Source of the DNA: Promethearchaeota archaeon
GTDB lineage: Archaea; Asgardarchaeota; Lokiarchaeia; Sigyniarchaeales; SOKP01
NCBI GenBank assembly: GCA_048938895.1
Contig: JBHLLU010000002.1
Span: forward strand, 32,001 to 96,000
Reading direction: 5' to 3'
Length of the DNA: 64,000 bases
This document shows positions 4,755 through 64,000 of this stretch, one piece after another; position 1 is the stretch's first letter; each line of letters starts with the position of its first letter. Both the position numbers and the translations under genes were made by a program. A model generated the notes under the pieces. That model ran no database searches. It was given only the letters and a program-made list of their open reading frames with translations, and was not told where the DNA came from.

Positions 4755-6152
4755 ATGGGTGGACTTTTTGGAGTATTTTCAAATAAGGATTGTATAGATG
4801 ATTTATTTTATGGAACCGATTATCATAGTCATTTAGGAACTGTTAGAGGAGGTTTAGCAGTAAAAAATTCTGGTGGGTTTCAAAGGTATATAAAAAATAT
4901 TACAACCTCTCAATTCAGATCAAAATTTGAAAAAGATATAACGAAAATGCACGGTAATAAAGGAATTGGAGTAATTAGTGATTTTGATGATCAACCTTTA
5001 ATTATTAATTCACAATTAGGAGTATTTGCAATTTCTACAGTAGGAAAAATAAATAATCTAGAAGACTTAGCTAAAGAAGCATTAGAAAATGGAACACATT
5101 TCTCAGAAATGCAGGGTAGTGAAATCAATCCTACAGAAATGGTTGCTACTATTATCAGTCAAGGTAAATCTTTTGAGGAGGGAATTCAAAAAGTTCAAAG
5201 TATCATTGATGGTTCATGCACCATGCTTATTTTGACAGAAAATGGAATTTTTGCTGCAAGGGACAAATTAGGGAGAACACCTCTTATTTTAGGTGAAAAA
5301 CCTAACGCATTTGCAGTCACCATGGAAACAAGTGCTTTTCCTAATCTGGGTTATGAAATTTCTAAATATTTAGGACCAGGTGAGGTTTTTTTTATTAACG
5401 AAAATGGTTTTGAGCAAAAGATCCCCCCAAGTAATCGTTTGCAGATTTGTGCCTTTTTATGGGTCTATTATGGTTATCCAGCATCTAATTATGAAGGCGT
5501 TAATGTAGAAGTCGTACGATATAAATGTGGATCTTATTTAGCAAGAAATGATGCTGTGGAAATTGATCTTGTAGCAGGCATCCCCGATTCTGGTACAGCC
5601 CATGGATTAGGTTATGCAAATGAAGCTCGAATTCCATATTCACGTCCATATGTTAAGTATACTCCAACCTGGCCTCGAAGTTTTATGCCACAGGAGCAGT
5701 CAATAAGAGATTTGGTTGCTATAATGAAACTTATTCCTATTAAAGAATTAATTAATGATAAACGTCTCCTCTTCTGTGAAGATTCAATTGTCCGAGGAAC
5801 TCAGCTGAAAAAAACAATTGAAAGATTGTTTGATTCAGGTGCTAAAGAAGTTCATATGCGACCAGCATGTCCTCCACTTGTGTATGGTTGTAAATTTCTA
5901 AACTTCTCTCGTTCTAAGTCTGAATTAGATCTAGCAGGAAGATGGGCAATAAAAGAATTAATCGGGAGAGATATCGGAGATCCTGCAGAGTATATAAATC
6001 CAGAGTCTGAAAAGTTTAAAGCTATGGTAGATATAATACGAAAAAGATTAGGACTGACAACTTTACAATACCAGAGACTTGAAGATTTAGTCAAAGCTAT
6101 AGGATTACCTAAAGAAAAGTTATGTACTTATTGTTGGGATGGTGCAGAATAA
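4755..6152 (+). CDS. purF: Amidophosphoribosyltransferase-like protein lacking the N-terminal catalytic Cys (begins MGGLFG)
   Basis: ARDKLGRTPL, IPDSG, RSFMP, PRPP loop EDSIVRGT, RPACPP and C-terminal LCTYCWDG. Confidence 0.85.
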   Translation: MGGLFGVFSNKDCIDDLFYGTDYHSHLGTVRGGLAVKNSGGFQRYIKNITTSQFRSKFEKDITKMHGNKGIGVISDFDDQPLIINSQLGVFAISTVGKINNLEDLAKEALENGTHFSEMQGSEINPTEMVATIISQGKSFEEGIQKVQSIIDGSCTMLILTENGIFAARDKLGRTPLILGEKPNAFAVTMETSAFPNLGYEISKYLGPGEVFFINENGFEQKIPPSNRLQICAFLWVYYGYPASNYEGVNVEVVRYKCGSYLARNDAVEIDLVAGIPDSGTAHGLGYANEARIPYSRPYVKYTPTWPRSFMPQEQSIRDLVAIMKLIPIKELINDKRLLFCEDSIVRGTQLKKTIERLFDSGAKEVHMRPACPPLVYGCKFLNFSRSKSELDLAGRWAIKELIGRDIGDPAEYINPESEKFKAMVDIIRKRLGLTTLQYQRLEDLVKAIGLPKEKLCTYCWDGAE

Positions 6153-6160
6153 ATTGTGAA

Positions 6161-7657
6161 TTAGGCTCTACTTTTCACAATAGATTTTTCCATTTCTGCT
6201 AGTTTTTGCACCGATTTCAGAGGATAATCACCAGTTAAACATGCTAAACATAGTTGAGTTCTATTTTTTCCAATTGCCAGCATCAAATTATCTATAGTCT
6301 GATATTCTAAAGTATCTGCACCAATTTTCTTTCTTATTTCTTCTAAATAATCTTCATTGTATAGTTCCTGAAAACTCCCAGCTATTAATTCTGCTTTTGT
6401 AGGGAAGTCGATTCCCATATAACATGGACTTATTATCGGTGGACAACTAATCCGTAAATGTACTCGTTTAGCTTGACCTTTTTCTCTTAAAAGTGAAACA
6501 ATCTGTTGTGTTGTCGTCCCCCTAACAATTGAGTCGTCTAAAAGAATAATATCCTTTCCTGAGATAACACTCTTGATTGTGTTAAGTTTTTCTTTTACCG
6601 CTATTTTTCGCTTCCCTTGTCCTGGCATAATAAATGTTCTGTGAACATACCTGTTTTTCATCAAACCTTCTACATAGGGAAGCTTAGCTTCCTTAGCATA
6701 TCCTACTGCAACACTACGACCAGAGTCGGGAACAGGCACTACTACAGCGTTCTCTCTAATTTCAGGATTTTTTAAAATCGGATCGCTTTTAGCTAAATAT
6801 TCTCCTAATCTAAGTCTAGCTTCTGCAACTGAGACACCATCAATTGTGGAATCGGGTCTAGCAAAATAAACAAATTCAAATTGACATAAAGCAGTTCTAT
6901 TTGATTTTATTATATTTTCAGAATGAATAGCTTTTTGATGACTAAGATGCACAATTTCACCAGGCTTAACATCTCGTATAAAATTTCCCCCAACAACATC
7001 AATCGCACAAGATTCTGATGCTACAAAATAGATGTTTCGCTGAGAATTTTTTATCTCTCCAATACATAGAGGTTTAAATCCAAGGGGATCGCGTATTGCA
7101 TAAATATCCCCCTCAGAGGTCATTAATATTAAAGAATATGACCCATCTAACAACCTGCTAGCTAGAGTTAAAACTTCTGGCCAGTCTTCTGTCCCTACTG
7201 CAATAGATCCAAATAATTGTGCTATTACTTCAGTATCAGTATCTGTAATAAAAACTCTTCCCATCTCATCCATATTTTTTTTAACATCATCAAAATTAGC
7301 TATAGTTCCATTAAAAGCCATAGAAAATTCAATATCACTTGTTTTAAAATGAAATGGTTGCATATAATCTGTAGATTTATATCCTGTCGAGCCAGTGGTT
7401 GCATATCTATTGTGTCCAATACCTACATTACCCCAATATTTAGATAATGTTTTATTATCTAAGACCTGTGAAACTAATCCACTTTTTTTATATGTATTGA
7501 TTTTGCCACCAGTTTTTAAGATTGAAATTCCCGTTGATTCTTGACCACGATGTTGTAATGCAATTAAACCTTGATATAAGAGTTTAGAAACAGAAAATCC
7601 TAAATCATCAGAAGTAACACCAAAAATAGCGCAATGATCTTTTACTTTATCTCTCAT
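6161..7657 (-). CDS. purF: Amidophosphoribosyltransferase (canonical, propeptide plus Cys nucleophile)
   Basis: MRDKVKDH-CAIFG, LQHRGQES, GHNRYATTG, CQFEFVYFARPDS, VPDSG, DDSIVRGTT, CLACLTGDYP. Confidence 0.97.
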   Translation of the reverse strand: MRDKVKDHCAIFGVTSDDLGFSVSKLLYQGLIALQHRGQESTGISILKTGGKINTYKKSGLVSQVLDNKTLSKYWGNVGIGHNRYATTGSTGYKSTDYMQPFHFKTSDIEFSMAFNGTIANFDDVKKNMDEMGRVFITDTDTEVIAQLFGSIAVGTEDWPEVLTLASRLLDGSYSLILMTSEGDIYAIRDPLGFKPLCIGEIKNSQRNIYFVASESCAIDVVGGNFIRDVKPGEIVHLSHQKAIHSENIIKSNRTALCQFEFVYFARPDSTIDGVSVAEARLRLGEYLAKSDPILKNPEIRENAVVVPVPDSGRSVAVGYAKEAKLPYVEGLMKNRYVHRTFIMPGQGKRKIAVKEKLNTIKSVISGKDIILLDDSIVRGTTTQQIVSLLREKGQAKRVHLRISCPPIISPCYMGIDFPTKAELIAGSFQELYNEDYLEEIRKKIGADTLEYQTIDNLMLAIGKNRTQLCLACLTGDYPLKSVQKLAEMEKSIVKSRA

Positions 7658-13969: not shown

Positions 13970-15235
13970 TTATATCCATTCCAATATTGAAGAACATCCC
14001 AGACCTTCCTTGTTTTCAACCCTACCGTGAACTAAAAAGGTATCGCCTTTATATCCACACTCAGGGCATTTATTTCTTGAAACAATCTCAACGATGTCAT
14101 CAACAATTATAGCATGGTTTACTGAGGCCTCAACGCCAAATGGAGTTAGCACTTCCAGAAGTCCCCTATCTCCTGCTTTTTTTAATGGTTCAAGGTCTGT
14201 TATATCCCTGACAATAATTCTAGCTTGAGATGGACAATGAAATATAAAATCTTGATATTTATCTGACCAGTGGCTCCCAAAAGTTATTGGCGTTTCGGTA
14301 AAACCATACATATCAGTAATTCTATCAGAGCTAGTCCCAAATGATTCCACACAATCAGAAACAAATTTTACTTTATCTATTGGAGGATATTTTAATTGTG
14401 ATTTATGTCCATCCCATCCTCCACCTCCAAAATTTACCACACTGTTGGGTAAATTAAATTTCAGATCCTTTTCTTTCATGATAGTATTCATGAACGTGTT
14501 TAATAATTGAAGACTCCCTCCAAATGAGATATGTTTCTGTTTTTCCAACGGTTTTTCTAAATTTTTTCTTACATGCTTAATCACATATTTTGAGTTTACA
14601 CCAAAAGCACCAACTAGACTTCGCTTTTTAATTATTTCCTTAAACGCTTTTAGAATAAAAAATTTAATCAAAAATTTTGGATTCGACATTCTTGTTGAAA
14701 TTTCATGCAAAATACTTCCATATAGTTTGATCGGTCTTACTTTCGTATACCTCATAGCAATTCGGTTTAAGAACTTAACACTAGGGGCGAAATCAAATGA
14801 AATTGTATTAAACCATTCATCTTGAGGAATTGGAATGAATTCATAAATACATTTGATAGTCATACTTGCTAATAATTCAATATCGTCTTTTGAACGTCCT
14901 ACTAAAGAAGCATCCCCTGATGTACAAGATGAGACATTCCATAGTTCAAACTTAGGGGAATATAAAGGTATTTTTAAGAATTTTTTAAACTTTCCTGCTG
15001 ATTCTTTGAAAAGATGTGCGGAGATATAAGGTATGGACGCTAAATCATCAATATTATTCAAATCACTAATATTAAAACTATTTTTTTTTACCAAATCCCT
15101 ATAATAAGCATTAAATCCAATAGCTTCTTCAGTAATTTCGCGCATTAGATTTACGAACTCTTGGCTATTATAATCTGTATTTATGATTTCTCGTATTTTT
15201 TCATCATCAACAATTTCGCTACTTAACATTATCAA
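13970..15235 (-). CDS. LuxE/PaaK-like acyl-protein synthetase (ANL superfamily)
   Basis: IPYISAHLFK, SSCTSGD loop, GGGGW, DMYGFTE, IIVRD, DDIVE and C-terminal GR...GLGCS carrying the LuxE-type acyl-acceptor Cys. Confidence 0.78.
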   Translation of the reverse strand: MIMLSSEIVDDEKIREIINTDYNSQEFVNLMREITEEAIGFNAYYRDLVKKNSFNISDLNNIDDLASIPYISAHLFKESAGKFKKFLKIPLYSPKFELWNVSSCTSGDASLVGRSKDDIELLASMTIKCIYEFIPIPQDEWFNTISFDFAPSVKFLNRIAMRYTKVRPIKLYGSILHEISTRMSNPKFLIKFFILKAFKEIIKKRSLVGAFGVNSKYVIKHVRKNLEKPLEKQKHISFGGSLQLLNTFMNTIMKEKDLKFNLPNSVVNFGGGGWDGHKSQLKYPPIDKVKFVSDCVESFGTSSDRITDMYGFTETPITFGSHWSDKYQDFIFHCPSQARIIVRDITDLEPLKKAGDRGLLEVLTPFGVEASVNHAIIVDDIVEIVSRNKCPECGYKGDTFLVHGRVENKEGLGCSSILEWI

Positions 15236-50638: not shown

Positions 50639-51063
50639 TATACCATTTTATAATGCGTCTCTGTTTTTTCTTTCACTTTGAACCCAAGTCGTTCATACAA
50701 TCTTTGAGCCTTTTCATTCGAAATCAAAACTTGGAGATATACGTCCTTTTGTTCTTCTTTCGCTTTTTTTAACAATTCTTTGATTAATGTAGTACCAATT
50801 CCTTGATTCTGAAACTGTGGTAGAATTTCTATTAATGAGAAAAAGAAATGATCTTCTTCTTCTCTGATTGAAATACAGCCAATGTCTTTACCTGATTTGG
50901 TTACTATCTTAAGTTGAACTGGTTTAAAATGCTTAAAATGATAATCTTTCTGCCATTCTTCATCCCATCCCCATGTTTTAGTAATATACTCTCTTAAAGT
51001 AGCTTTTTTAAGAAGATAGCAGAAGTCGTAATCTGTCTCTGTTGCTTGGCGTAATTGAATCAT
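50629..51063 (-). CDS. GNAT acetyltransferase
   Basis: ILPQFQNQGIGT, N..AQRLYERLGF. Confidence 0.92.
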   Translation of the reverse strand: MIQLRQATETDYDFCYLLKKATLREYITKTWGWDEEWQKDYHFKHFKPVQLKIVTKSGKDIGCISIREEEDHFFFSLIEILPQFQNQGIGTTLIKELLKKAKEEQKDVYLQVLISNEKAQRLYERLGFKVKEKTETHYKMVYHS

Positions 51064-51173
51064 GTATTAATTGCTATTTATTAAATCTTAATTAAAGTTA
51101 ATATTATTTTAAATAATTTTAAATCTTATAAGTCTTAATCCATTTCTAAAAAGCTATTCTAAAAAATTTTATT

Positions 51174-52154
51174 ATGCCTTCAGAAAAATCCTTAGGTGAA
51201 TATTTTAATAATACTGGTCGTGAAGATGTGTTATCTGGAGGAGTAAAAATGATACCCATCCAGACACAATTTGGTGAATTTAAAGTTTGGACGAAAAGGA
51301 TAGGAAATAATCCAACAATCAAAGTCCTTCTGTTGCATGGAGGTCCGGGTGCAACACATGAATACTTTGAATGTTTTGATAGTTTTTTTCCTGCAGAGGG
51401 TTTTGAATATTACTATTACGATCAATTAGGATCTTTTTATAGTGATCAACCTGAGGAACCGGGATTATGGGAGATTCCAAGATTTGTGGAAGAAGTAGAA
51501 CAAGTTAGAAAAGCTTTAAAATTAAAAAAATCAAACTTCTATCTATTTGGGCAATCTTGGGGAGGCATACTAGCAGTTGAATATGCATTAAAATATCAGG
51601 GTAATCTTAAAGGTCTAATAATCTCCAACATGATGATGAGTGCCCCTGCTTATGGAAAATATGCTGATGAAGTCCTTGGACCTAAACTTGATCCCAAAGT
51701 TTTAGCTGAAATTAAAGATTTGGAGGCTAAGGAAGATTTTGATAATCCTCATTATATGGAATTATTATTATCTAATTATTACACAGAGCATTTTGTACGC
51801 ATACCTGTTGAGCAATGGCCAGAACCCATTAATCGAACATTCAAACATCTTAATGAGGATGTTTATGTACCAATGCAGGGTCCTAGTGAATTTGGGATAA
51901 GGGGTACGTTAGAAAATTGGGATAGAACTTCTGACTTATCTAAAATAAAAATTCCTACTTTAGTAATCGGAGCTACTTACGATACAATGGATCCCGAGCA
52001 TATGAGATGGGTATCTACCCAAGTACAACAAGGACAATTTTTATTATGCCCAAATGGTAGTCATTGTGCTTTCTATGATGATCAGAAGAAATTTTTTGAG
52101 GGGTTGATAAAATTTATCAACGATGTAGATCAAAAAACGTTTTCTCCAAAATAA
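51174..52154 (+). CDS. pip: Proline iminopeptidase (alpha/beta hydrolase)
   Basis: LHGGPG, YDQLGS, GQSWGG, MQGPSEF, YDTM, GSH. Confidence 0.92.
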   Translation: MPSEKSLGEYFNNTGREDVLSGGVKMIPIQTQFGEFKVWTKRIGNNPTIKVLLLHGGPGATHEYFECFDSFFPAEGFEYYYYDQLGSFYSDQPEEPGLWEIPRFVEEVEQVRKALKLKKSNFYLFGQSWGGILAVEYALKYQGNLKGLIISNMMMSAPAYGKYADEVLGPKLDPKVLAEIKDLEAKEDFDNPHYMELLLSNYYTEHFVRIPVEQWPEPINRTFKHLNEDVYVPMQGPSEFGIRGTLENWDRTSDLSKIKIPTLVIGATYDTMDPEHMRWVSTQVQQGQFLLCPNGSHCAFYDDQKKFFEGLIKFINDVDQKTFSPK

Positions 52155-52277
52155 AGATTTAATCGTTTAAGAAAGAAATTGATATCAAAAGAATTAATAG
52201 ATTTTTTATCAAATATAATATAAGAAGCGATTATTTTTTATAGATTTATGATTACATAATCATATTTTCATTTCTTT

Positions 52278-52306
52278 CTGTGCAAAAATAAAATAGATTT
52301 GTGCAA
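52278..52306. promoter_or_regulatory. Two TGTGCAA boxes 21 nt apart upstream of the uDENN-like/7TM operon
   Basis: CTGTGCAA 52278-52285 and TTGTGCAA 52299-52306. Confidence 0.55.
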
Positions 52307-52435
52307 TATTATGTGTTAATGTCACAAAAAAAGTGAAAAAACATCTAATTTTTTATAAGTTCATAATCTTATGAATATTGAAACAAAGAATAATACTATT
52401 TCAATAATTGAACATTTAAGAAGTAGGTTCTAAAA

Positions 52436-52930
52436 ATGGCTACAGAGTATGCAATTCTCGCGAAATTAGGTGGTTTCATTGGAAGTAATCCTGAAATAAT
52501 AAGCTCAACTCCTTCTCTAAAATCAATTATGACTGAAACCGAACTTCTTAGTAAATGTTTTCCTATTGGTTCTAAAGTTGGACAATTCATCGAAGATAAG
52601 TTAAATAAATATCTAGTATTATCATACATTTTTAAAGTAAAACAAGAGCGTGAGAGAGATGATTTATTCTCTTTATCAATTCTCCTAAATAAACATGATA
52701 AAATTGATATATACAAACATACTCTGAAAGAACTTGTAGATATTTTAGAAGAAAATGGATTACTTAGTGAATTGATTTTAACTAAATACCATAATCTCAT
52801 TTATGAAGGGATGAATCAAGAAAAGGATATTCTCATTGAAAACAAATTTATAGAATTATCGAGAATCTTTAGAGATATTAAAGCAAAGGTTTTAAAACAA
52901 AAACCACAGTTAAAAGGAAGTTTTTTCTAA
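52436..52930 (+). CDS. Cytoplasmic protein resembling a uDENN/longin domain
   Basis: KCFPIG followed by beta-rich YLVLSYIF...LFSLSILL and then a helix, as in uDENN modules (by eye only). Confidence 0.5.
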   Translation: MATEYAILAKLGGFIGSNPEIISSTPSLKSIMTETELLSKCFPIGSKVGQFIEDKLNKYLVLSYIFKVKQERERDDLFSLSILLNKHDKIDIYKHTLKELVDILEENGLLSELILTKYHNLIYEGMNQEKDILIENKFIELSRIFRDIKAKVLKQKPQLKGSFF

Positions 52931-53568
52931 TGGTAGAAGATATTATTGTTGAAAATCTAAGAGTAATAGGTTATTTTCTTAGCGCTACTCTTATTCCATT
53001 TGCTACAGTAATCTTAGGAAGGAGGATTATTAAAGAAAAAAGGACAACAGGGCAACATAATAATGTTCGTTTAATAATTTTTGGAATCTTATTTAGTTTC
53101 GCCCTAATGAGTGTTTTGGAATACTTGGTTGAGTTGTCATTATTCCCAGAGGAAATATTTGGGTATAGTATAACATATATAAATTTATATTCGATATTAA
53201 TTGGTACTATGGTATCTTTAGGTCTTAGTTTAGTATTTTATATTAATAGATTGGAGACTTTTTATTTCTTTTCACTATTTATCTTTGGTGGAATGATAAT
53301 TTTTTATTACTTAACTGGATTTAGCGACTGGCTTGAATTGTATATACAAATAACAGCTGTACTGTGTCTCTCATTTATATATTTTACAAGTTTTCGAGTG
53401 AGAGATAATGGAGCACTTGGCTTAGCCATCTTTTTTACTTTAGCCTTTAGTACTTTGGTAATCGAGATTTCTTTTGTCAATCAGATAATAATATTTACAT
53501 ATAATATATTTATTTTGTTTTTCTCGCTGGGACTATTTAGGCCATTTAAAGAGGAGGTTATTCAATAA
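52930..53568 (+). CDS. Seven-TM membrane protein
   Basis: Seven hydrophobic segments; TAATG overlap with the upstream gene. Confidence 0.75.
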   Translation: MVEDIIVENLRVIGYFLSATLIPFATVILGRRIIKEKRTTGQHNNVRLIIFGILFSFALMSVLEYLVELSLFPEEIFGYSITYINLYSILIGTMVSLGLSLVFYINRLETFYFFSLFIFGGMIIFYYLTGFSDWLELYIQITAVLCLSFIYFTSFRVRDNGALGLAIFFTLAFSTLVIEISFVNQIIIFTYNIFILFFSLGLFRPFKEEVIQ

Positions 53569-53569
53569 A

Positions 53570-54220
53570 ATGCCACAGTTTCTCTATATGATAATAGAAG
53601 GTATGTATTTTATATTTGGCTTATTATCGATAAAAATTACCTTAAATACTTGGAAAGATAATAAAAACCGGATTCTAATTGCCATCTCTGTATACATGAT
53701 TGCTGTCTTAATGAAATCTGTAATTGATATGTTGTTTTATCTTCTTGATCTTAATTTGGACGTTGAAATAATTGGATATGTTACCATTGGGCAGATAATT
53801 GGCAATATTTTATTCGTGATTCAACTGGAATTTATATTTTTCTTAAAAAAGTTGACTAAATTATATACGCTTCCCTTCATCATAGCTTTCTATCTTATTG
53901 CTGGAAGAATTCAAGTAAATTCAGCTCTACCATTCATCATATATGCTATGTTGGTGGGTTATGGATCTGCTTATTTACTAATTAAAGATGGAAAAAGAAA
54001 GCTAAATGGACAAGCAGTTGGGATGGGCTTATTCTTCTTGCTTTGGGCTTTAGGACAAACTGTTCCCATTGAAGTATTTTTTATTTTCTGTAGGTTATTC
54101 GCAATGATATTACTCTTTTTAGGTACTAAGGGATTCTATGAAAAGTATATTTTCCCAGATCTAGAGGAAGAAAAGAAAATTATGGGTGCTTGGATCGCAA
54201 AATTTGTCATAAAGGATTAG
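53570..54220 (+). CDS. Seven-TM membrane protein (distant paralogue of the preceding gene)
   Basis: Seven hydrophobic segments; shared basic-NG...G..(L/I)FF motif at TM6. Confidence 0.75.
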   Translation: MPQFLYMIIEGMYFIFGLLSIKITLNTWKDNKNRILIAISVYMIAVLMKSVIDMLFYLLDLNLDVEIIGYVTIGQIIGNILFVIQLEFIFFLKKLTKLYTLPFIIAFYLIAGRIQVNSALPFIIYAMLVGYGSAYLLIKDGKRKLNGQAVGMGLFFLLWALGQTVPIEVFFIFCRLFAMILLFLGTKGFYEKYIFPDLEEEKKIMGAWIAKFVIKD

Positions 54221-54461
54221 TTCGATATAGATTTATTTTATGATAAAAACCAGATTTCAATTTTTTATTGAACCTTGACTAAGTTGAATTTACCTAGACT
54301 ATATTTGATTCTGAAAGAGGATATCAGCAAATTAACAAGAAGAATCTTATTTGTAGCAATAGAACAAAAATCAGTAAAAAAGCTCAACTTTTTATTTTAA
54401 AATCAGCATAATTAGTTAAGAATAAAATCATTATTTCAAACTACTCTACTAGTTGGCAAAA

Positions 54462-55358
54462 ATGGGAATTAGAAATCTTCTAAAAAGAGTTTTTACAAAA
54501 GAAAAGAAAGTTGTTATATGTGGATTAGATAGTGCTGGAAAGAGTACTATGGTTAGTTTTCTTCAAAATGGAACCTTTATAGAACACACTCCAACAATGG
54601 GTAAAGAATTGACCACTTTGCAAGTGCAAGGTATTAGAATAAATTTAATCGATATGGGAGGGCAAAAAGATTTTCGAGATTTATGGCTAGGAGAAGCTTC
54701 ACAAGCTGAGTGCGTTATATTTATGATAGATGCTCATGCTAAAGAAAGATTTAATGAAGCAAAAAGGGAGTTATGGAAATTATCAGATAATTTTAAGAAG
54801 AATCCATTGATTGTTTTAGCAAATAAATATGATCTGCAACCGGTGGCGAGTATCAGTGATATAATCGAAGTTTTAGATTTGAATAAATTACCTTCTTTTG
54901 AAGTTATGCCTATTTCATGTAAAACGGGATACGGAATTGTCAAAGCATTTATGAAAATTTATTATAAATTAACTGGAAGTCAACTAACTAAAAAAATTAA
55001 CACAAAAGCAGTAACAATTTTCGATCAAGGTGGTGTACCCCTTACATCTTCTTCAGATGAGGATATTCTTCAAGGAGGACTTTTCTCAGCAATTAACAGC
55101 TTTGTCAAACAATCATTCCATTCTGATTTGGATCAACTAAAATTTGGTGACAATTTAATTATCTTTAAGCGATCTAAAAATTTGTTAGGTTCTATTGTAA
55201 TTAATAATGGTGATAGGGTGAATGTTAAATATGCTGAAGATGGTTTAGATGAACTATTAACACACCTAGAGAATATGTGCCCTGAACTTGAAAAAAATCA
55301 AACAGATTCAGGAAAGATTGAATTCTTAGTGAAACAATATGCTTCAAATCTTTTATAA
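54462..55358 (+). CDS. Arf-family small GTPase fused to a C-terminal longin/roadblock-like domain
   Basis: MGIRNLLKRVF, G1 GLDSAGKS, G2 PTMG, G3 DMGGQ..FRDLW, G4 NKYD, G5 SCK. C-terminal IFDQGGVPL...GGLFSAINSF. Alternative start TTG 54453. Confidence 0.92.
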   Translation: MGIRNLLKRVFTKEKKVVICGLDSAGKSTMVSFLQNGTFIEHTPTMGKELTTLQVQGIRINLIDMGGQKDFRDLWLGEASQAECVIFMIDAHAKERFNEAKRELWKLSDNFKKNPLIVLANKYDLQPVASISDIIEVLDLNKLPSFEVMPISCKTGYGIVKAFMKIYYKLTGSQLTKKINTKAVTIFDQGGVPLTSSSDEDILQGGLFSAINSFVKQSFHSDLDQLKFGDNLIIFKRSKNLLGSIVINNGDRVNVKYAEDGLDELLTHLENMCPELEKNQTDSGKIEFLVKQYASNLL

Positions 55359-55559
55359 TATTATTTTCTTTTTCTTATTTTTCAAGAAATTCTTTATAGA
55401 GAAATAGTTTAAACTAGTTATCTATCAATAAAAGTTGAAGAATTTTGAATTTTGTACAAATTGAAATGAGAAAGTAATTATACAATCAAAAATTTTTGCA
55501 GAATAAGCTACTCGAGGTATTTTTGAACTCAACAAACAAAAAATAAAGAGTTTTACAAT

Positions 55560-56333
55560 ATGATTATGATTCTGTTTACAATTCTATTATGGATCATAAT
55601 ACTTGATAACTTACTTCTTGGGATTTTTTTACTCATCAAAGCATTCCAAATTAAGTTTATTAATCTCTATTCAATGGGTATCGGTTTTGTATTATTTTTT
55701 GTTGGATTGTTCGGTAATTTTGTATTAGGTTATGGTTATTTCTTTGAAGAATTATTTGTATTTATAGGTTATTTCTTAATCGCTTTCTTTACTTACTTAA
55801 CCTTCCATAGACGGAAGGTTGATTACAAAGCTAGACTATTATTATACTTATCATTAGTCTTTATGTTCACTCGAATCTTTCTTGGTTTGTTGGTTGAAAT
55901 TAATTTAAATCCAGTTACTAGATATTCTGAACTGATTATAATAAACTGCTGTCTATTCCTAGTTTTTTATTGGTTAGGATGGTCTTCTTTATCTGCGTAT
56001 AAAAGATTGCGTAACATTAATGTTGCTCCTTGGTTAAAAACAAGATATAAAGCTATTTCTATTGTTTCTTTTTTATGGCCATTCCATGCGCTATTAGGTT
56101 TATTCTTACCGTGGAATACTGAGTTTGGTGATCCTTCTGATATAATAAGTTTGATCCACTTCAGTATAACTGTAATTTTAAGCTTGATTTTTATAATAGG
56201 AATGATTATCGCGTGGATAATTCCTGAATATCTAAAAAATTACATAAATAGTAAAAAAGGGTATGAACCTCCGGATGATAAAGAATTATCTGAAGATGAC
56301 CTAATGAAGTTGATAAAAAGTCAATTGCCATAA
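55560..56333 (+). CDS. Seven-TM protein (family shared with 61965-62771)
   Basis: Seven hydrophobic helices, FTYLTF, PWLKTRY, AWIIP..LK, ELSEDDLM tail. Confidence 0.8.
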   Translation: MIMILFTILLWIIILDNLLLGIFLLIKAFQIKFINLYSMGIGFVLFFVGLFGNFVLGYGYFFEELFVFIGYFLIAFFTYLTFHRRKVDYKARLLLYLSLVFMFTRIFLGLLVEINLNPVTRYSELIIINCCLFLVFYWLGWSSLSAYKRLRNINVAPWLKTRYKAISIVSFLWPFHALLGLFLPWNTEFGDPSDIISLIHFSITVILSLIFIIGMIIAWIIPEYLKNYINSKKGYEPPDDKELSEDDLMKLIKSQLP

Positions 56334-56471
56334 GATAATAACAAATAATTAATTATCAAGAGTGAACTCTTCAGATTGGCATTTAAGCAGAAGTTGGCTT
56401 TAAACTCAGTAAACAACTGAAGATTATAGATAGTTCATGCTCATTATAAATTTTATAATTATATTATAAAT

Positions 56472-58346
56472 TTATCTGCTAAATACTATTGGAAGTGTAA
56501 AATAGAAAGTTGAACCTTTATTTCGACCTTTTGACTCAACCCAAATCTCTCCTCCATGCAATTCTATGATTTTTTTTGATATGTACAAACCTAATCCAGA
56601 ACCACCTAATATATCATCGAATCCTTGGTTCTTTCTGCTAAATTTTCCGAACTTTTGAAACAGCTTCTCTTTCTCATCCTCAGTAAAACCAAAACCATCA
56701 TCTTTTATCGAGGTAACAATAGTATTACCCTTAATTTCAGATCGTAGTTCTATCAATCCCCCTGGAGGAGAATAATTTATAGCATTGTTAAGTAAATTTG
56801 AAATAACTTCACGAATTTGCTCTTTATTAAATTTAGTAATCCCAATATCTTTTATATCTACATCAATTTTTAATAATTTCATTTTGGCGAAAGTTTGTAA
56901 TTCATCAACACATGATTTTATAAGTGTTGCAATATCTCCTTTTGAAGTAATTAATTCGATTTTACTAGTTTCTAATTTTGAACTTTCAATTAATTTATGG
57001 ATTATATCCTCAATTCTTTCGCAACCTCTTTGAATTGAATCTATCATTTTCACTACTTCTGGTTTTAAATTTTCATAATGTAAATTTAAAATTAAGTCGG
57101 CGTTACCCTTTATAGCTACTAATGGTACTTTTAGCTCGTGAGATGCTCTTCTAAGAAATTCATTTTTTAAATTGTTCAATTGTTCTAACTCTTTATTTTG
57201 TTCTTTTAATTTTTCCTCGGATTCCTTTAATTTTCTTTCACTGGTTTTACGATCAGAAATGTCTCGAGCTATGGTAATAATTTTCTTATTACCGGCACCA
57301 TCTACAAAATTCTTCGCCGAAATTTCCAACCATTTATAGCTACCATCTTCATGTTCAAAACGTGTTTGATATGAGCCTTTTCCTTTTCTTAATATTTTAC
57401 CTAATAAAATAGCTGATCGTTTTCGATCATCTGGGTGTACAAGAGTAAGAGGACTTTCTTTTAATAGTTCTTTTTTAGAATAGCCAAGAATCTGTCTATG
57501 TACATTTTCATTTAGATCTTCATATTCAAATTTATTATTTAGTACTTTAATGAGATCATTCGCATTTTCAAAGATTAATCTATATTTTTCTTCAGATTCT
57601 CTTAATTTGATTTCTATTTCCTTTTCTCTGGTGATATCTCGAGAAACTAATAATATCCTTTTATTACCATTCGAATCAAATGTTACCCTTCCGTTTACAT
57701 CCATCCATTTATAGGAATTGTCTTTTGTGCGCATTCTATATTGTCCTCGGCCTTGACCTTCTTTTAACGCTTCTTTTAAAAGAAGTTTAGCGTGTTTTAT
57801 ATCATCGGGATGCAAAAATTCCAAAGGAGATTTGCCTATGATTTCTTCTTTTGAAAATCCTGATATCCGTTCCTGTGTTTCATTTATAAATAATAACTCG
57901 AATTTATCGTTAAAAACTGAAATCATATCATTAATATTATCTGTAATGAACTGATATTTTTCTTCAACCTCTTTTTGGACCGATATATCTCTTAATACTG
58001 CAGTAAGTTTTATGTTTTCATTTTCCCGTAAAATAGTTCCATTGGCAGATAAATGTACATAATGTCCATCCTTATGTAATGCTCTGTATTCAGCAGATAT
58101 TGGACCTCCACCGTCTATTAAGTTTTTCATTTTACTCAATAAATTAGGAAGATCTTCGGGATGGATGAATTTAAAACCATTAGTTCCAATAACTTCCTCA
58201 GGATTATAACCAAGAATATTTTTTACTTGTGGACTCACATAAGTAAAATATCCATCTAAATCAGATTCTACTATGATATCTCTAATATGATTTACAATTA
58301 ATTGTAGATGTTCTTTAGTATCTTTTTTTTTTTTGTTGTTTGACAT
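56472..58346 (-). CDS. Soluble histidine kinase with 3 PAS domains
   Basis: HPED/HPDD PAS repeats, SHELKVPL, NLLNNAINY, GSGLGL. Confidence 0.95.
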   Translation of the reverse strand: MSNNKKKKDTKEHLQLIVNHIRDIIVESDLDGYFTYVSPQVKNILGYNPEEVIGTNGFKFIHPEDLPNLLSKMKNLIDGGGPISAEYRALHKDGHYVHLSANGTILRENENIKLTAVLRDISVQKEVEEKYQFITDNINDMISVFNDKFELLFINETQERISGFSKEEIIGKSPLEFLHPDDIKHAKLLLKEALKEGQGRGQYRMRTKDNSYKWMDVNGRVTFDSNGNKRILLVSRDITREKEIEIKLRESEEKYRLIFENANDLIKVLNNKFEYEDLNENVHRQILGYSKKELLKESPLTLVHPDDRKRSAILLGKILRKGKGSYQTRFEHEDGSYKWLEISAKNFVDGAGNKKIITIARDISDRKTSERKLKESEEKLKEQNKELEQLNNLKNEFLRRASHELKVPLVAIKGNADLILNLHYENLKPEVVKMIDSIQRGCERIEDIIHKLIESSKLETSKIELITSKGDIATLIKSCVDELQTFAKMKLLKIDVDIKDIGITKFNKEQIREVISNLLNNAINYSPPGGLIELRSEIKGNTIVTSIKDDGFGFTEDEKEKLFQKFGKFSRKNQGFDDILGGSGLGLYISKKIIELHGGEIWVESKGRNKGSTFYFTLPIVFSR

Positions 58347-58442
58347 TTTAAAAATGTGTTCTTGTTATTTATTGATTACAAGATTTAGACCTCGAATATA
58401 TAATAGTTGGAAATCTATTTCTTAAAAAGCTTGTTAAAAAAT

Positions 58443-58617
58443 TTGTGCAAGAAATATTTAGCTCTCAAGAACTTTTGTACATTTAGATCAATCAAAATAA
58501 AGATAAAAATGAACTTATTAAAGTCTTATTTTGCCTATATCTTTTCATGTTGATAGAACGTATTTTCATTATTAACAGTTGTTAATTATAAGAAAAAAGA
58601 TAATTTTTTATGTGCAA
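58443..58617. promoter_or_regulatory. TGTGCAA-type boxes in the divergent kinase/regulator promoter
   Basis: TTGTGCAA 58443-58450, TTGTACAT 58475-58482, ATGTGCAA 58610-58617. Confidence 0.55.
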
Positions 58618-58670
58618 AATTATTTATTTTTATTAAAGAAAATTAAAAACATAATTTCGGATAAAGAAAA

Positions 58671-59567
58671 ATGGCGCAAAAAGTCCAAAAAACAGAAGAA
58701 ATGAAGAATTATGAATTAGAAACAGGGAAAAATGCAATTTGGAATAATGAAATTACTAAAGGATTCTTAAAATGGCAAAAAGGTGAACGTCTTTACGACA
58801 TTGATAAAGAACGTGTTGCACTCTATGTTTCTAAGAATATGAAAGAAAGGTGGGTATCATTTGTCAAAAAAAGCAATTATTCTACTCTATCAAAATTAGT
58901 TAAAGAAGCAATCGATTTTTATATTCAATATAAATCTTCCCCCTATAGTGAAAAAGAACCAGAAAATACTAACGTGCTTTCAAGAATTTCTCATGATTTA
59001 AAAGAAAGATTAACCACAATTATGGCTTATCTACAATTACTAATTGAAGGGAAGGAATATTCTCTAGATTTTGGGGTTGTTACAGAATTAAAGAACATTT
59101 ATAACCAGTGCCTTTCTTTTGAAGAATTTATAATATCTAATTTTGAAAACTTAAAACTTGAAGAGGAAAAAATTATGGATAGAGACAAAATCAAATATGA
59201 TATTTTAATCATAGAAGATAATATTGAGACACTGAATTTTCTAATAAGATACTTTGGGCATTTAGGATATTCTTGTAAAGAAGCAAGAGCGGGTAAGAAG
59301 GGATTAGACCTTCTAAAAGAGTCTAAACCATTAATCATATTACTTGATATTATTTTACCAGATATAAATGGGTATGATTTTCTAAAATCAGTCAAATCGA
59401 ATCCTGATTATAATGATATTAAAATCATATTCTTAACTGCTGTACCAAGTTCAGAAGTTGCGGAAAAAATGGTTGAATTTGGTGTTGATGGTTTAATATC
59501 AAAACCTTTTAATTTAAAAGATTTTGAACTAGTCGAGAAGTTTCTGAAAGAAATAAAAAAAAAATAA
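58671..59567 (+). CDS. Response regulator with RHH-like domain, HisKA-like helix pair and C-terminal receiver
   Basis: RVALYVSKNMKERW...LSKLVKEAIDFY (RHH pattern), ISHDLKERLTTI, IIEDN/LLDIILP/FLTA/KPF. Confidence 0.85.
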   Translation: MAQKVQKTEEMKNYELETGKNAIWNNEITKGFLKWQKGERLYDIDKERVALYVSKNMKERWVSFVKKSNYSTLSKLVKEAIDFYIQYKSSPYSEKEPENTNVLSRISHDLKERLTTIMAYLQLLIEGKEYSLDFGVVTELKNIYNQCLSFEEFIISNFENLKLEEEKIMDRDKIKYDILIIEDNIETLNFLIRYFGHLGYSCKEARAGKKGLDLLKESKPLIILLDIILPDINGYDFLKSVKSNPDYNDIKIIFLTAVPSSEVAEKMVEFGVDGLISKPFNLKDFELVEKFLKEIKKK

Positions 59568-59576
59568 TTTATATTC

Positions 59577-61844
59577 CTAACCATTCTCCCTCATTTCTTT
59601 AAAAAAACGTATAAAGAATTTAGCACCCTTGTTTCTTCCATCAGATTCAACTAATACTTTGCCTCCATGAAGCTCTACTATTTCCTTTGTAATATAAAGT
59701 CCTAAACCTGCTCCCTCTATGTCCACATCAAGATCCTGACCATATCGCTCAATTTTCCCAAACTTTTGAAATAGTTTCTCTTTTTCTTCCAGGGTAATTC
59801 CTACTCCATTATCTTCTACAATGATGTCAATTAAATTTTCTGACTCTTTTAATTCTATTCTTATCTTTCCTCTAGAAGGTGTATTTTTGATTGCATTCGA
59901 AATAAGGTTTATTATTGATTGAGAAAATCTATTTTTGTCTACATTATAATAGATTTCATTAGGTAAATCCAAATCGATATTTATTTGTCTCGATGATGCT
60001 AGATACATTAATTCCTTGACACATTCCCTCATTACTTCACTTAAGTCTTGTTCTTCGAGATTAAGATTTAATTGTTTAATATCCAATTGAGAAGCATCTA
60101 ATAAATTATCTACAAGCTCTTTTAACCGTATTATACCACTATGTGATATTTCAAGATAAGATCTTATCTCTTCATTTAAAGTTGAATCTCTTAATAAGAG
60201 TTGAGATACACCATAAACCGATGTGAGTGGGGTTCTTAATTCATGCGAAATCCTTGTAATAAGTTCTTTTCTTAATTCATCTAATTCTAATAGTCTCTTG
60301 TTTTCTTCAACTATTAGATTCTCTGCCTTTTTCCTTGTTGTTACATCAATGAGAGAAACTAAAACTGCATTTTTTCCTTGATATTGGATTACCTTAGAAT
60401 TTATTTCGATCCATATTACTTCACCAGATTTTGTAAATAATCTGTAAGGGTGAGCTCCTTCTATGCCAAAGCTTCCCGTTTCCATTCTTTGGAATCTTTT
60501 CATCGCAATTGATAAATCCTCAGGATGAACTAATTTGAAGAATTCGTTTGGCGTCCAAGTTGATACTTCTTGTTGGGAATATCCTGTTGTATTTAATAGA
60601 GCCTCGTTAGCATATTTTATTTTCCCATCTTGTAGAATTACTATTCCTAAAAAGGATTGCTCAGTAATAGTTCGAAATTTTCCTTCTGATTCTATTAACT
60701 CTAATTCTGCTTTCATTCGCTCAGTAATGTCTCGATCAATACCACGATATCCTTGAAAATTTCCTTCAATATCAAAAATTGGAGCACCACTCGTTTCAAG
60801 TATTATAATTTGTCCATTCTTGTGTAAATTTCTATTTACCAACCCTTCAAACGAGCTTTGGGATATAATTATCTCCTCAAACATTTTTCTCACACGCTTA
60901 GCTTCCTCTCCTGGCATTAAATCGAATGGAGTTTTACTTATAACTTCTTCAGGCTCATAACCTAGTAGTTCTCTAATTTTTGGACTGGAATAAACATATT
61001 TATTATTTCGATCCACTTCCCAAATCCAATCACTGGTAGTCTCGACAAGACTTCTAAATTTCTCCTCAGATTCTTTTAATTTTTCCCCTGCAATTTTTCG
61101 TTCTGTAATATCTTCATAAGTGCCAAGAATTCCTATAATTTTGTCCTCCGAATCATGGAGAGGGATTCGATTTATATCTAACCATGCTTGTTTTCCATCT
61201 GCTTGGGTTTGTGGTTCAATGACGTGATATTCGGGTTTTCCAGATTCCATCACTAAACGCTCAATTTCATAAAATGATTCTGCTTCTTCAAATCTCCACG
61301 CTAAGTCATGATCTATCTTTCCTATTATATTTTCTGGATCTCCAACACCAGCTACTCTAGCAAAATTTCTGTTGCACCCTAGGTATTTTGAATCAATATC
61401 TTTCCAAAAAATATGTTGAGGAATATTATCTAATACTAACTGAAACATTCGCTTTGAATTATTCAATTCATCAAGTAGAGCCTTTTGGGTTGTGATATCT
61501 CTCATTACAGTTATAAAAATACGTTCTCCATCAATTTTATTTTTCATGAGCTTTGTTTTAAATTCTCCATAAAAAGAACTTCCATCAGGCTTTAATAATT
61601 TGTATTCATGTTTTTTTATGGATCCTTTTGTCTTGAGTTCCTTAAAATTTTCTTGAAGTTCATTATGTTGTTCTGAAACCACAAAATCAGAGATATGCTT
61701 TCCAATAAAGTAATTTTTATCTTCAATATCGTAAAAATCTAAAACATTTTGTGAAACGTTAATTACTTTCCCCTCAAAATTAAAAATTACAACGAGATCT
61801 GGTATGGCGTTAACTAATTCCTCCAAAAAAGTATTCATCATCAT
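59577..61844 (-). CDS. Soluble histidine kinase with 4 PAS domains
   Basis: PAS/PAC repeats, [27 protein letters not shown]. Confidence 0.95.
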
Positions 61845-61964
61845 TATAATAATCTAAAAAATTTAATGAAATTATATTGTATAATTATAGTGAATAAATT
61901 TAACTTTATGTTTAAAAATTCTAATATTCCCCTGTTTTAATGAGATTTAAAATATATTATGAAT

Positions 61965-62771
61965 TTACTTATCTTTACTAAGCTCTTTTTCAATGACTTC
62001 CATTAGTTCATTTTCACTATACTCCTTCTCAGATAGTCTCTTAAAACCTCTATTATAGAATTTTTTTAAGCGTTTTGGCATTATCCATGCGATAAATGCA
62101 CATATAGAATAAAAAATTGTAAATCCTAAAATTATATATGAATAAATAACATTTGGAAACTCATATAATCCTATTACATTGTAGGGAATGAAATAATATA
62201 TAAAAATACTTAAAGAATAAATAATAGAACTCAAGCCAATCAATTGATATCTCTTTTTAACCCAAGGCTCAATATTGATATATTTTAAGTAGTAGTAATA
62301 TTTCAATGCAATTATACCTAACCAGAGATGAGACAATAAAAACGATATTGTTATTGAAAAAAGAATAAAGAAGTAGTATACTAAGTTAGACTCTTCTAAA
62401 GAAGTAGTCATAGGTATTGAAATTTGAAAGATTAATCTAATGATGAAATCTATACTTCTGACTATGATCAAAATTAATAGAAAGATCTTAAAAGGACTCT
62501 TTTTATCTTTGAAAAATGTTAATTTAGTAAAAATCACGATTAGAATATTTGGAAATTGATTTAAGAATAAAGTTATTATAATTAGTGATGGAACTAAGGC
62601 ATAGAAAACCAATCTTAAACTAGTTATAAGGAAAAACAGGATTAAAGGGAGTAGATTATAAGTCTTTGTCTTTATCATTTTAATTAAAAGAAAAGTAGCT
62701 ACAAACAGTTGTAATACAATCCATACTAGCTGAAATGAGTAATTAATAATAACTACTGTCTGCAATAACAT
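61965..62771 (-). CDS. Seven-TM protein (paralogue of 55560-56333)
   Basis: FTKLTF, EPWVKKRY, AWIMPKRLK, EYSENELM; SD GGGGAGG. Confidence 0.8.
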   Translation of the reverse strand: MLLQTVVIINYSFQLVWIVLQLFVATFLLIKMIKTKTYNLLPLILFFLITSLRLVFYALVPSLIIITLFLNQFPNILIVIFTKLTFFKDKKSPFKIFLLILIIVRSIDFIIRLIFQISIPMTTSLEESNLVYYFFILFSITISFLLSHLWLGIIALKYYYYLKYINIEPWVKKRYQLIGLSSIIYSLSIFIYYFIPYNVIGLYEFPNVIYSYIILGFTIFYSICAFIAWIMPKRLKKFYNRGFKRLSEKEYSENELMEVIEKELSKDK

Positions 62772-62783
62772 AATAATCCTCCC

Positions 62784-63059
62784 CTATATCTTCTCCATTG
62801 TGATTAATGATTGATTTTCCAATATTTCTTTTAATAATATTTCTATAATTTGCTTAAATTTCTTAATATTCAGGTTCTCAAGTCTTCTTTTTAGAGAATT
62901 TTGAATAACTTTTTGATAATCCCTTAAATCCATCGTATTTAGTTTCTGAAACGGGGTAAGTTCTTCTTTAATTGCTAATTTAATAAGACCCCTTGAAGCC
63001 GCTTCCGATATACCAATTTCTTTTGATAATATTTCTCCTAGGTAATAGATTATCTGTAT
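62784..63059 (-). CDS. Helical hypothetical protein of about 91 aa missed by the ORF track (probable ATA start)
   Basis: Open frame IQIIYYLGEILSKEIGISEAASRGLIKLAIKEELTPF...NQSLITMEKI*. SD GAGGT lies 7 nt before ATA, and the stop abuts the SD of the 7TM gene. Confidence 0.7.
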   Translation of the reverse strand: MQIIYYLGEILSKEIGISEAASRGLIKLAIKEELTPFQKLNTMDLRDYQKVIQNSLKRRLENLNIKKFKQIIEILLKEILENQSLITMEKI

Positions 63060-63186
63060 ATTGCTAACCTCACTTCAAGATAGAAATTTAATTTTATTAG
63101 TGATGTGGGTATCTCTTAATATGTTTATTAATATCGGTTATTATATAATAAATTTTTTTTTGTTATAGCCTTATATTCGCTGTTTG

Positions 63187-63389
63187 ATGCACAGTCATTA
63201 TCATAAATTTGCACATGAGAATAAGATTTTCGATTATTTTATGCAAAATTCTAAAAAATTGATAAAAATTCGTTCTGTTAATAATAACAAAATTATAGAG
63301 GATCATCTTTTAATTTATTAATTTTTTTTAGTATTATAATCATTGGGTAATTGCACAAAATAGATTTAGAATCAGACCTTTTTGCACAA
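63187..63389. promoter_or_regulatory. Cluster of TGCACA boxes in a divergent promoter
   Basis: ATGCACAG 63187, TTGCACAT 63209, TTATGCAA 63239, TTGCACAA 63351, TTGCACAA 63382. Confidence 0.6.
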
Positions 63390-63427
63390 AACCCGAACAT
63401 AATATAAGTCTTAAATGATGATCATAA

Positions 63428-63700
63428 ATGGATTGTTATGATGAAATTTTGGAAATATATCAAAAAAATAATAAAAAAGATAGATTCATAACATATTTGA
63501 CATATCTAATAAACAAAAAATCAAAAGTTTTAACTGAATTACAATTTCAAAATTGCCTGATACTAATATTAGCAATTTGGAATCCTAAGTTCATTGATTT
63601 ATATGTTAGAGAAGGGGAAGACGCAAAGTCACTCCAACAGGAAAAGAAAGAAAAATTTATTAAAATTTTAAAATCTGAATTTAAAGATTTTAATAATTAA
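63428..63700 (+). CDS. Small hypothetical protein
   Basis: 90-aa ORF with ATG, preceded by a TATA-like TATATAA. Confidence 0.6.
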   Translation: MDCYDEILEIYQKNNKKDRFITYLTYLINKKSKVLTELQFQNCLILILAIWNPKFIDLYVREGEDAKSLQQEKKEKFIKILKSEFKDFNN

Positions 63701-63729
63701 ACAATAGAATAATAAAAAAAGGAATTAAA

Positions 63730-64000
63730 ATGACAGTTTCATCTCACAATAATATAATAAAGAATTCGGAAGGGATTTTTCAAACGCTAATTACTCATAT
63801 TAATTATATAATTATCGAGTTAGATTTAAATGGTAATATTATTTATATGAATGCTCAAGCAAATAATCTCTTAGGATACAATTCAGAAGAAATTTTAGGA
63901 GTAAATTGTTTTAAATTCATCCACCCCGAAGATCATTTAAAATTAATTAGTAAAATGAAATTTTTAATACAATATGGGGGTTCAATATCAGATGAATACA
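63730..64000 (+). CDS. PAS-domain protein (probably another kinase), truncated by the window end
   Basis: MTVSSH...IIELDLNGNIIYMN...LLGYNSEEILGVNCFKFIHPED, similar to the first PAS of 56472-58346. Confidence 0.85.
   Translation, partial: MTVSSHNNIIKNSEGIFQTLITHINYIIIELDLNGNIIYMNAQANNLLGYNSEEILGVNCFKFIHPEDHLKLISKMKFLIQYGGSISDEY

Follow-up and report, generated by a model that had tools for sequence, protein, structure and literature searches.

The DNA analysed here is a 64,000-nucleotide stretch (the window) of contig JBHLLU010000002.1, positions 32,001 to 96,000 of the forward strand, from the Promethearchaeota archaeon assembly GCA_048938895.1. Between positions 52,278 and 63,389 it carries a signalling island in which a short box built on the hexamer TGTGCA (TGCACA on the opposite strand) recurs in three intergenic regions and is a candidate operator of a local regulatory circuit. 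The host genome (G000) comprises 4.65 Mb in 174 contigs with 31% G+C and approximately 4,100 called genes, and the window lies within a contig of 146 kb. Within the island, the gene at 58671..59567 on the positive strand encodes a putative regulator, the candidate binder of the boxes, in which a ribbon-helix-helix (RHH)-like segment, a HisKA-like DHp segment and a receiver (REC) domain were recognised by Pfam and fold searches taken together. It is divergent from a gene encoding a PAS histidine kinase (56472..58346, negative strand; three PAS domains, HisKA and HATPase_c by Pfam). The gene at 52436..52930 (positive strand) encodes a longin-like protein of 164 aa, and that at 63428..63700 (positive strand) a protein of 90 aa, with the gene for a third PAS kinase 3′ of it, from 63730 onward on the same strand. 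The box-bearing regions are referred to as IG1 (before gene 52436, the first gene 3′ of its boxes), IG2 (58347-58670) and IG3 (63170-63427, before gene 63428), and total 958 bp.

The hexamer occurs in these regions on the positive strand at 52279, 52300, 58444 and 58611 and on the negative strand at 63188, 63210, 63352 and 63383. An initial annotation, made from the sequence alone, had proposed these eight copies as a recurrent operator-like motif with four variants, and all eight were re-found at their coordinates, as were the variants TTTGTACAAA (55451-55460), TTGCAGAA (55496-55503), TTGTACAT (58475-58482) and TTATGCAA (63239-63246). For the window as a whole there is no enrichment of the hexamer: it has 18 copies where 15.9 +/- 4.1 are expected, and a count of 18 is reached in 33 of 100 shuffles. 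The intergenic DNA of the host, defined with our own open reading frame (ORF) caller for ORFs of at least 70 aa (527,814 bases, 22% G+C), holds 63 copies (0.119 per kb), eight of which fall within the three island regions, excluding an equal frequency in all intergenic DNA; any other intergenic region of the host has at most two. When the three regions were shuffled 20,000 times with dinucleotides preserved, they held 0.21 hexamers on average, at most three and never eight, in agreement with the earlier estimate of well under one by chance. Because TGTGCA had been picked after the sequence was seen, all 2078 reverse-complement-collapsed hexamers were scored in every 11.2 kb span of the genome; the island cluster ranked fourth (-log10 P = 10.0), with only TATATA, ATATAG and poly-A clusters above it. 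The hexamer excess is local and goes beyond composition.

Exact sites from 13 regions in six genomes, 33 sites that are not independent of one another, give the extended consensus TT-W-TGTGCA-A-R-A, with T at -2 in 26 of the 33 and A at +1 and at +3 in 30. The box is a near-palindrome (TTTG-TG-CAAA), and its fully symmetric form, that of TTTGTACAAA, is found at orthologous positions.

Relatives of the host were drawn from 54 genomes of the genus, together with metagenome contigs. Orthologues of the regulator (E <= 1e-95; 73-90% identity) were identified in seven of the 54 genomes and on one metagenome contig (L069), giving eight loci, with L029 and L072, and likewise L030 and L055 (G064:C262), each counted once; in the related-locus search, two of four loci in genome contigs and one of three in metagenome contigs were relevant. 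A proximal box, TTTATGTGCAAA, lies approximately 60 nt 5′ of the regulator start codon at all eight loci, which bears out both the proposal that the regulator has boxes in its own promoter and the conservation expected upstream of orthologues. In the alignment of the regulator upstream regions (363 columns, seven loci; G042 lies outside the alignment and was read from its unaligned upstream sequence), this box (58607..58618, positive strand) forms the longest invariant run, at 12 columns, and it is also present in G042. The second longest, at six columns, is GTGCAA (58445-58450), invariant at all seven aligned loci, and other invariant runs are of three columns or fewer. This second run overlaps distal box 1 (TTTGTGCAAGAA, 58444..58449, positive strand), which stands 227 nt from the regulator start on one side and 98 nt from the divergent kinase gene on the other. 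Distal box 2, a TGTACA variant within TTGTACAT (58476..58481, positive strand), is placed 31 nt after distal box 1 in window coordinates; its counterpart is TGTGCA in G052, G007 and G009, TGTACA in G064 and L029, and TTTACA in L069, and G042 has TGTGCA at the corresponding place. The distal pair can be recognised at all eight loci as T-W-GTGCAAGAA followed 31 nt on by TTTGT(G/A)CA, with the first box degenerate in G042 and the second in L069; the layout as a whole is the same in these two as elsewhere. Comparison with the three loci that are most distant gives identities of 78-86% within the boxes and 51-54% outside them. By this alignment evidence, the boxes upstream of the regulator are phylogenetic footprints.

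IG2 on its reverse strand, IG3 and five regions of relatives align with one another as a single cassette of approximately 230 bp (seven copies); IG2 and IG3 are thus paralogous copies of one cassette and not independent draws. The blocks of the cassette run in the order TTTTGCACATAA; TATGCAAAA (in four of the seven copies); TTCGTTCT-N-GAACAGA; TTTTAATT; GGGTTTTTGCACAAAA; and, 31 nt on, TTCTTGCACAAAA. Downstream lies an operon of the 90-aa protein and a PAS kinase, the 90-aa gene following six of the seven copies, with homologues 3′ of the cassette in G064, G007 (two copies) and G009 (two copies); in the host IG2, where the cassette points to 56472-58346, the kinase stands alone. In G007, G009, G042 and G064 the regulator gene is divergent on the far side of the cassette, so that block 1 of the cassette is the proximal box of the regulator. 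The IG3 copy of block 1 (TTTGCACAT on the positive strand; 63210..63215, box on the negative strand) aligns with the regulator-proximal box of IG2 and of the relatives. Block 2 is a degenerate box in the opposite orientation (TATGCAAAA; 63240..63248, positive strand), which corresponds to the variant TTATGCAA. Blocks 5 and 6 make up the proximal pair of IG3, TTGCACAAAA ... TTGCACAAAA as read on the positive strand (63352..63388, boxes on the negative strand), spaced 31 nt apart and located 76 and 45 nt before the 63428 start; this pair is found in seven of seven copies, with one or two boxes degenerate. The eighth hexamer (63188..63193, negative strand) lies outside the conserved cassette blocks, and the 22-nt pair that it forms is weak, since the sequence flanking this box departs from the consensus and none of the other cassette copies has a box to match it. 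No boxes precede the orthologues of the minus-strand 61965 operon in G052, G009 and G007, and in these comparisons the IG3 boxes belong to the plus-strand 63428 operon. As boxes, the four variants fare unequally: TTGTACAT aligns with TGTGCA in orthologues and TTATGCAA recurs in four of seven cassette copies, while TTTGTACAAA at 55451 and TTGCAGAA at 55496 have no counterpart in G064, the one orthologous region compared.

Two further features of the cassette were observed. Its middle block in IG2, TTTTCATGTTGATAGAACG (58541..58562, no strand assigned), is conserved in both the cassette and the regulator upstream alignments, and in relatives this block (IG3 copy at 63262-63290) contains an inverted repeat, GTTCT-N7-9-AGAAC, that may be the site of a second factor or a hairpin. 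In L055, 788 bp (14145-14932 of G064:C262) separate the regulator from the 90-aa gene and hold five exact boxes in two cassette copies; the DNA between the copies resembles the first codons of a PAS kinase joined to its last ~40 codons, as after an internal deletion.

The IG1 boxes, TGTGCAAAA and TGTGCAATA (52279..52305, positive strand), form a direct repeat spaced 21 nt start to start, located 157 and 136 nt before the 52436 start. Orthologues of the longin-like gene occur in eight of the 54 genomes, and the pair is present in the four that have the regulator, at 21 nt in G000 and G064 and 20 nt in G007 and G009; both boxes are exact in G000, G064 and G007, and G009 has one exact box with TATGCA as the second. 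The other four (G063, G056, G058 and G057) have neither the pair nor the regulator, their best matches to the latter being paralogues of 43-46% identity, or none at E <= 1e-95. The alignment has a clean gap of ~32 columns in place of the pair in G063 and G056, and the block 3′ of the boxes (ACAAAA..AAAAAA..TTTTT) is conserved in all six aligned sequences. As judged from these alignments, the IG1 pair is an arrangement separate from the cassette. A promoter block of the form TGTAGCAA..ACAAAAA..AGT.AAAAAAG..TTTTTAT is shared between 52313-52360, 3′ of the IG1 boxes, and 54341-54390, before the gene encoding an Arf-family GTPase; the TGTAGCAA-type block is also conserved in G064 and in the box-free genomes G063 and G056.

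Spacing of 31 nt is found in eight pairs from five genomes: G000 (IG2 and IG3), G064 (two), G007 (two), G052 and G009. The exceptions are a spacing of 32 nt in L029 and one of 62 nt, with a degenerate middle box, in G009:C181. When the 54 genomes were searched for two TGCACA words 14-26 nt apart, five matches had a total length of 37 nt, equivalent to the 31-nt spacing, and these came from G000, G064, G007, G009 and G052, all of which have the regulator. Spacings of 31 and 20-21 nt amount to three and two helical turns. The initial annotation had listed spacings of 21, 22 and 31 nt as close to whole turns; all three are numerically correct, with the 21- and 31-nt spacings conserved and the 22-nt pair not.

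The regulator encoded at 58671-59567 has an RHH-like segment at approximately residues 45-90, a DHp segment with His108 and a receiver with Asp226, and no ATPase domain. Pfam identifies Response_reg (E 1.1e-20) and, weakly, HisKA. Among 54 homologues D183, D226, T256 and K278 are invariant and H108 is nearly so, which by sequence defines a receiver domain with acidic pocket, phospho-acceptor Asp, Thr and Lys. The N-terminal part includes the conserved segment K-E-R-(V/I)-(A/S)-L-Y-V ... S-T-L-S-K-L-I-R-E-A-L, for which NCBIfam gave no match in the RHH region. A model of 54 N-terminal residues (predicted local distance difference test (pLDDT) 82) shows an extended stretch followed by two helices, and nearly all of its top Foldseek rows against the PDB are RHH proteins by title (ORF56, CopA_SO, CopG, NikR, PutA, ParD, omega and AmrZ), with probability up to 0.97, TM 0.6-0.9, root-mean-square deviation of ~1 A and E 0.14-2.5. 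A homodimer prediction for residues 40-165, run on our own alignment, scored 0.58 against 0.00 for the best of three controls; of 30 proteins solved as pairs of one chain, 20 attain the mark applied to this score, as does one of 23 solved as single chains. Contacts agreed between runs to at least 81%, with partner pLDDT of at least 69, and the interface comprises the DHp helices and residues 45-55, where residue 52 touches 48 in the manner of an antiparallel ribbon. Structures of RHH and DHp dimers already exist, so the pass may reflect the predictor's recall of them. The models suggest that the N-terminus is RHH-like and likely dimeric, a likeness and not a proof. An Arc-type RHH-HisKA-REC architecture has been named in Lokiarchaeum sp. 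GC14_75, in a published survey (Galperin et al. 2018, PMC5847659). The description of the regulator as RHH-bearing is therefore upheld by the fold model and the printed architecture, and is not reflected in Pfam. It is the sole protein of the island with a recognisable DNA-binding fold.

Paralogues of the regulator offer a comparison within the family. The host encodes seven, none with a proximal box, one of them having a single TGTGCAAAA approximately 255 nt upstream. In the nearest paralogue group the predicted beta-strand reads KERISLYV in place of the KERVALYV of the regulator, and at four of six loci (G000 contig C99 upstream of 5731-6477 on the negative strand, L004, L006 and L057) three direct repeats of TGTAAAA/TGTATAAAA stand 20 and 18 nt apart just 5′ of the paralogue's own gene; the intergenic background of this word is 0.77 per kb. 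The tandem-paralogue group has conserved A-rich/TTAAATAA promoter blocks and no clear box. Family-wide self-regulation through related yet distinct boxes would fit these observations, which compare two groups only.

The 164-aa protein encoded at 52436 has no Pfam or NCBIfam family, and its longin-like assignment comes from a structure search with an Atlas model, which gave TM ~0.70 to the longin(-type) regions of NPR2/NPRL3 and DENN proteins; in G057 and G058 the longin-like gene lies immediately 3′ of an Arf-like GTPase gene. The operon headed by 52436 sits just 5′ of the gene for an Arf-family GTPase with a C-terminal extension (54453-55358, positive strand; Pfam), two membrane proteins being listed between them; the Arf-family domain covers residues 11-169 of 301, and Pfam matches nothing in the C-terminal ~130 residues. 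Two further membrane proteins, both multi-pass, are encoded at 55560-56333 (positive strand) and 61965-62771 (negative strand), and the membrane proteins of the island have no Pfam or NCBIfam match. These last two are paralogues (32% identity over 259 residues, in a match that crosses one TAA stop). A second PAS kinase is encoded at 59577-61844 on the negative strand. Preceding 61965-62771 is a small conserved ORF (62784-63074, negative strand), a frame of 96 codons without an ATG, GTG or TTG start in the host; the aligned start is ATG in G007 and ATA, preceded by GAGGT, in G000, G009 and G052, suggesting that it may encode a small protein with a non-canonical start. For the 90-aa family there was no Pfam or NCBIfam match and no match in a profile search of PDB sequences, and all Atlas leads were sub-threshold. 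A second paralogue of the 90-aa protein, of 100 aa, is encoded 3′ of the third PAS kinase at G000:C12:97462-97764 (window coordinate 65462, past the window end) and has no exact box upstream.

The explanation that we favour, and to which we give somewhat better than an even chance, is that the TT-W-TGTGCA-A-R-A boxes are operators of a local circuit with the RHH-DHp-REC protein of the island as their putative binder. The boxes, their conservation, their spacing and their restriction to genomes with the regulator are features of the aligned DNA, and the RHH-like fold is that of a predicted model; from these we infer binding by the regulator, cooperativity, control by phosphorylation and a sign of regulation, as follows. 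The protein would dimerise through its ribbon-helix-helix and the DHp four-helix bundle, and each dimer would occupy one pseudo-palindromic box by inserting its beta-ribbon into the major groove. Dimers on the same face of the DNA, at boxes 20-21 or 31 nt apart, would touch each other, and phosphorylation of the receiver by the neighbouring PAS histidine kinases would alter this assembly. Targets would include the regulator's own gene, through the box ~60 nt 5′ of its start codon; the divergent kinase or 90-aa-plus-kinase operons behind each cassette copy; and the longin-like (52436) operon just 5′ of the Arf-family GTPase gene. The proximal box stands beside an AT-rich stretch that is a possible core promoter of the regulator, which would suggest self-repression; base composition across 1652 gene upstreams reveals a Shine-Dalgarno signal between -8 and -12, and no sharp TATA position.

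Several observations weigh against this explanation. All box-bearing genomes belong to a single clade, which reduces the co-occurrence of boxes and regulator to one evolutionary event, and other island genes have the same genome distribution as the regulator. The linkage of the 90-aa gene to the cassette (six of seven copies) is as tight as that of the regulator, three cassette copies have no adjacent regulator gene (G000 IG3, G007:C143:4833 and G009:C181), and recurrence within the island is due largely to duplication of the cassette. The distance from box to 90-aa start codon ranges from ~45 to ~140 nt, a misfit with one fixed operator position. For the N-terminal 100 residues of the regulator, Pfam returned no RHH family even at E <= 10, Foldseek returned nothing in the PDB at E <= 0.001, and a PDB-sequence profile search placed three RHH proteins (E 0.4-1.2, not significant) under four ribosomal protein S1 entries (E 0.04-0.06). 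The pattern TWTGTGCAARA also has 10 copies in host intergenic DNA, of which three are in the island and seven outside, and whole-genome counts, coding DNA included, against those of a reversed control are 24/8 in G064, 34/8 in G007, 14/6 in G009, 11/3 in G052 and 11/10 in G042.

Seven single-substitution control patterns have 2-5 intergenic copies each. The seven outside sites are all single and lie beside mixed genes, encoding a PAS kinase, a Ras GTPase, Roadblock/VWA, ArsR, a CoA-transferase, DUF3795 and a LamG giant protein; DNA of the Ras GTPase site has matches in two of five relatives, the stronger G009 matches being confined to query sequence ahead of the box. A wider regulon outside the island is possible. 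Close-set multi-box clusters occur on island contigs only, in the host and five relatives, and a reading of the boxes as a dispersed repeat resembling a miniature inverted-repeat transposable element (MITE) was rejected on this ground. Rfam gave no known RNA family at E <= 1 in 51000-64000. We dropped by judgement the readings of the boxes as an origin of replication, a CRISPR leader or restriction sites, with no supporting genes or repeat architecture seen and no dedicated test made.

The boxes could instead be real and read by another protein, either the 90-aa protein or a clade-specific factor encoded outside the island, the regulator then being one of the targets; this is unlikely, while holding an appreciable minority share of the weight. 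The position of the 90-aa gene 3′ of nearly every cassette copy, the cassettes found away from the regulator gene and the occurrence of the extended motif beyond the island would all suit such a binder, as would the lack of any Pfam, NCBIfam, PDB-sequence or Atlas lead to a fold for the 90-aa protein. However, the host IG2 copy retains all of its boxes without a 90-aa gene, IG1 likewise has boxes and no such gene, and the regulator alone among the island proteins has a DNA-binding fold that can be recognised. Moreover, the best-conserved box is the one nearest the regulator gene, and a paralogue group of the regulator bears repeats of its own 5′ of its own gene. We consider it improbable that the hexamers are a passive by-product of duplication of the cassette with its paralogous downstream genes and have no binding role. 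Duplication does account for much of the count, since the cassette alignment covers six of the eight hexamers and two variants, but the boxes are the best-conserved blocks of the cassette in DNA that is otherwise at 51-54% identity, three copies of the word share one cassette at a fixed spacing of 31 nt, and the IG1 pair is independent, differently spaced and conserved in four genomes.

A role as core promoter elements, a BRE/TATA variant read by TFB and TBP, appears more improbable still. The proximal box, TGTGCAAAA-TTATTTAT, does resemble the A-rich element followed by TTAAATAA that precedes the paralogues; however, 63 intergenic copies of TGTGCA are set against ~4,100 called genes, many boxes are followed by C-rich, non-TATA sequence (AACCC, AAGGTC), boxes are paired 31 nt apart at variable distances from the start codon, and paralogue promoters lack them. 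Chance clustering in AT-rich DNA is hardly credible: the choice of the hexamer after the sequence was seen and its ordinary count in the whole window speak for it, and it is refuted by the shuffles, the hexamer scan and the footprints at eight of eight orthologous loci.

Operators of RHH repressors such as CopG, Arc, MetJ, omega and NikR consist of pseudo-palindromic or repeated sub-sites of ~7-10 bp, several on one face of the helix. These repressors have sites in their own promoters, the beta-ribbon of the dimer reads the major groove, and dimers assemble on adjoining sites. The island boxes are alike in their short repeated sub-sites and own-promoter placement, and the fold search returns these very proteins; however, the sub-sites of the island are not adjacent but spaced at 20-21 or 31 nt, the RHH-like segment is fused to a DHp bundle and receiver rather than to a small-molecule sensor or antitoxin tail, and its sequence similarity to known RHH families is below Pfam detection. 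The 0A boxes of Spo0A and the Pho boxes of PhoB are helically phased short direct repeats in the promoters of the phosphorelay's own genes, where they serve auto-regulation. The arrangement described here is alike in its phased repeats at own promoters and differs in fold, domain of life and transcription machinery.

Within the archaea, the domain order is shared with the RHH-HisKA-REC proteins of Lokiarchaeum, and homologues of the 58671-59567 protein are labelled Lokiarchaeota/Promethearchaeota; the accessible part of the survey lists the architecture only, without DNA target, promoter motif or gene context (PMC5847659). The same part describes archaeal response regulators as rarely having a DNA-binding domain and their two-component transcriptional outputs as largely unknown, with Bat-type regulators, LtrR (HTH-REC) and FilR1 as DNA-binding examples (PMC5847659). 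These share with the island regulator the combination of a receiver with a DNA-binding domain and the presence of kinases encoded nearby, whereas they use helix-turn-helix (HTH) or winged HTH domains (PMC5847659), and the island protein has a putative RHH with a His-containing DHp between it and the receiver and no ATPase domain. A literature search of partial coverage, supplements excluded, found no operator for the RHH-HisKA-REC family; searches by 8-mers gave unrelated primer or sequence matches only, and one for Asgard promoter data brought up nothing usable. The protein family is already in print, and the new part would be the candidate operator array for an Asgard-specific response regulator with RHH output.

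The boxes would be the first candidate operator for the RHH-HisKA-REC family, with a conserved site of 11-12 bp, spacing rules and a named candidate binder. The targets proposed for them, PAS kinases and a neighbourhood of longin-like and Arf-family GTPase genes, may illustrate the control of eukaryote-like GTPase modules in Asgard archaea. As a tentative extension, doubtful when taken as a whole, the RHH-DHp-REC family may be self-regulating with a box of its own for each orthologue group (KERVALYV with TGTGCAA, KERISLYV with TGTAAAA), and phosphorylated dimers may bridge boxes three turns apart, wiring a two-component system to a longin/Arf-GTPase membrane module. If true, this would provide the first cis-regulatory code known for an Asgard transcription factor and would place a prokaryotic phosphorelay in control of a eukaryotic signature GTPase system.

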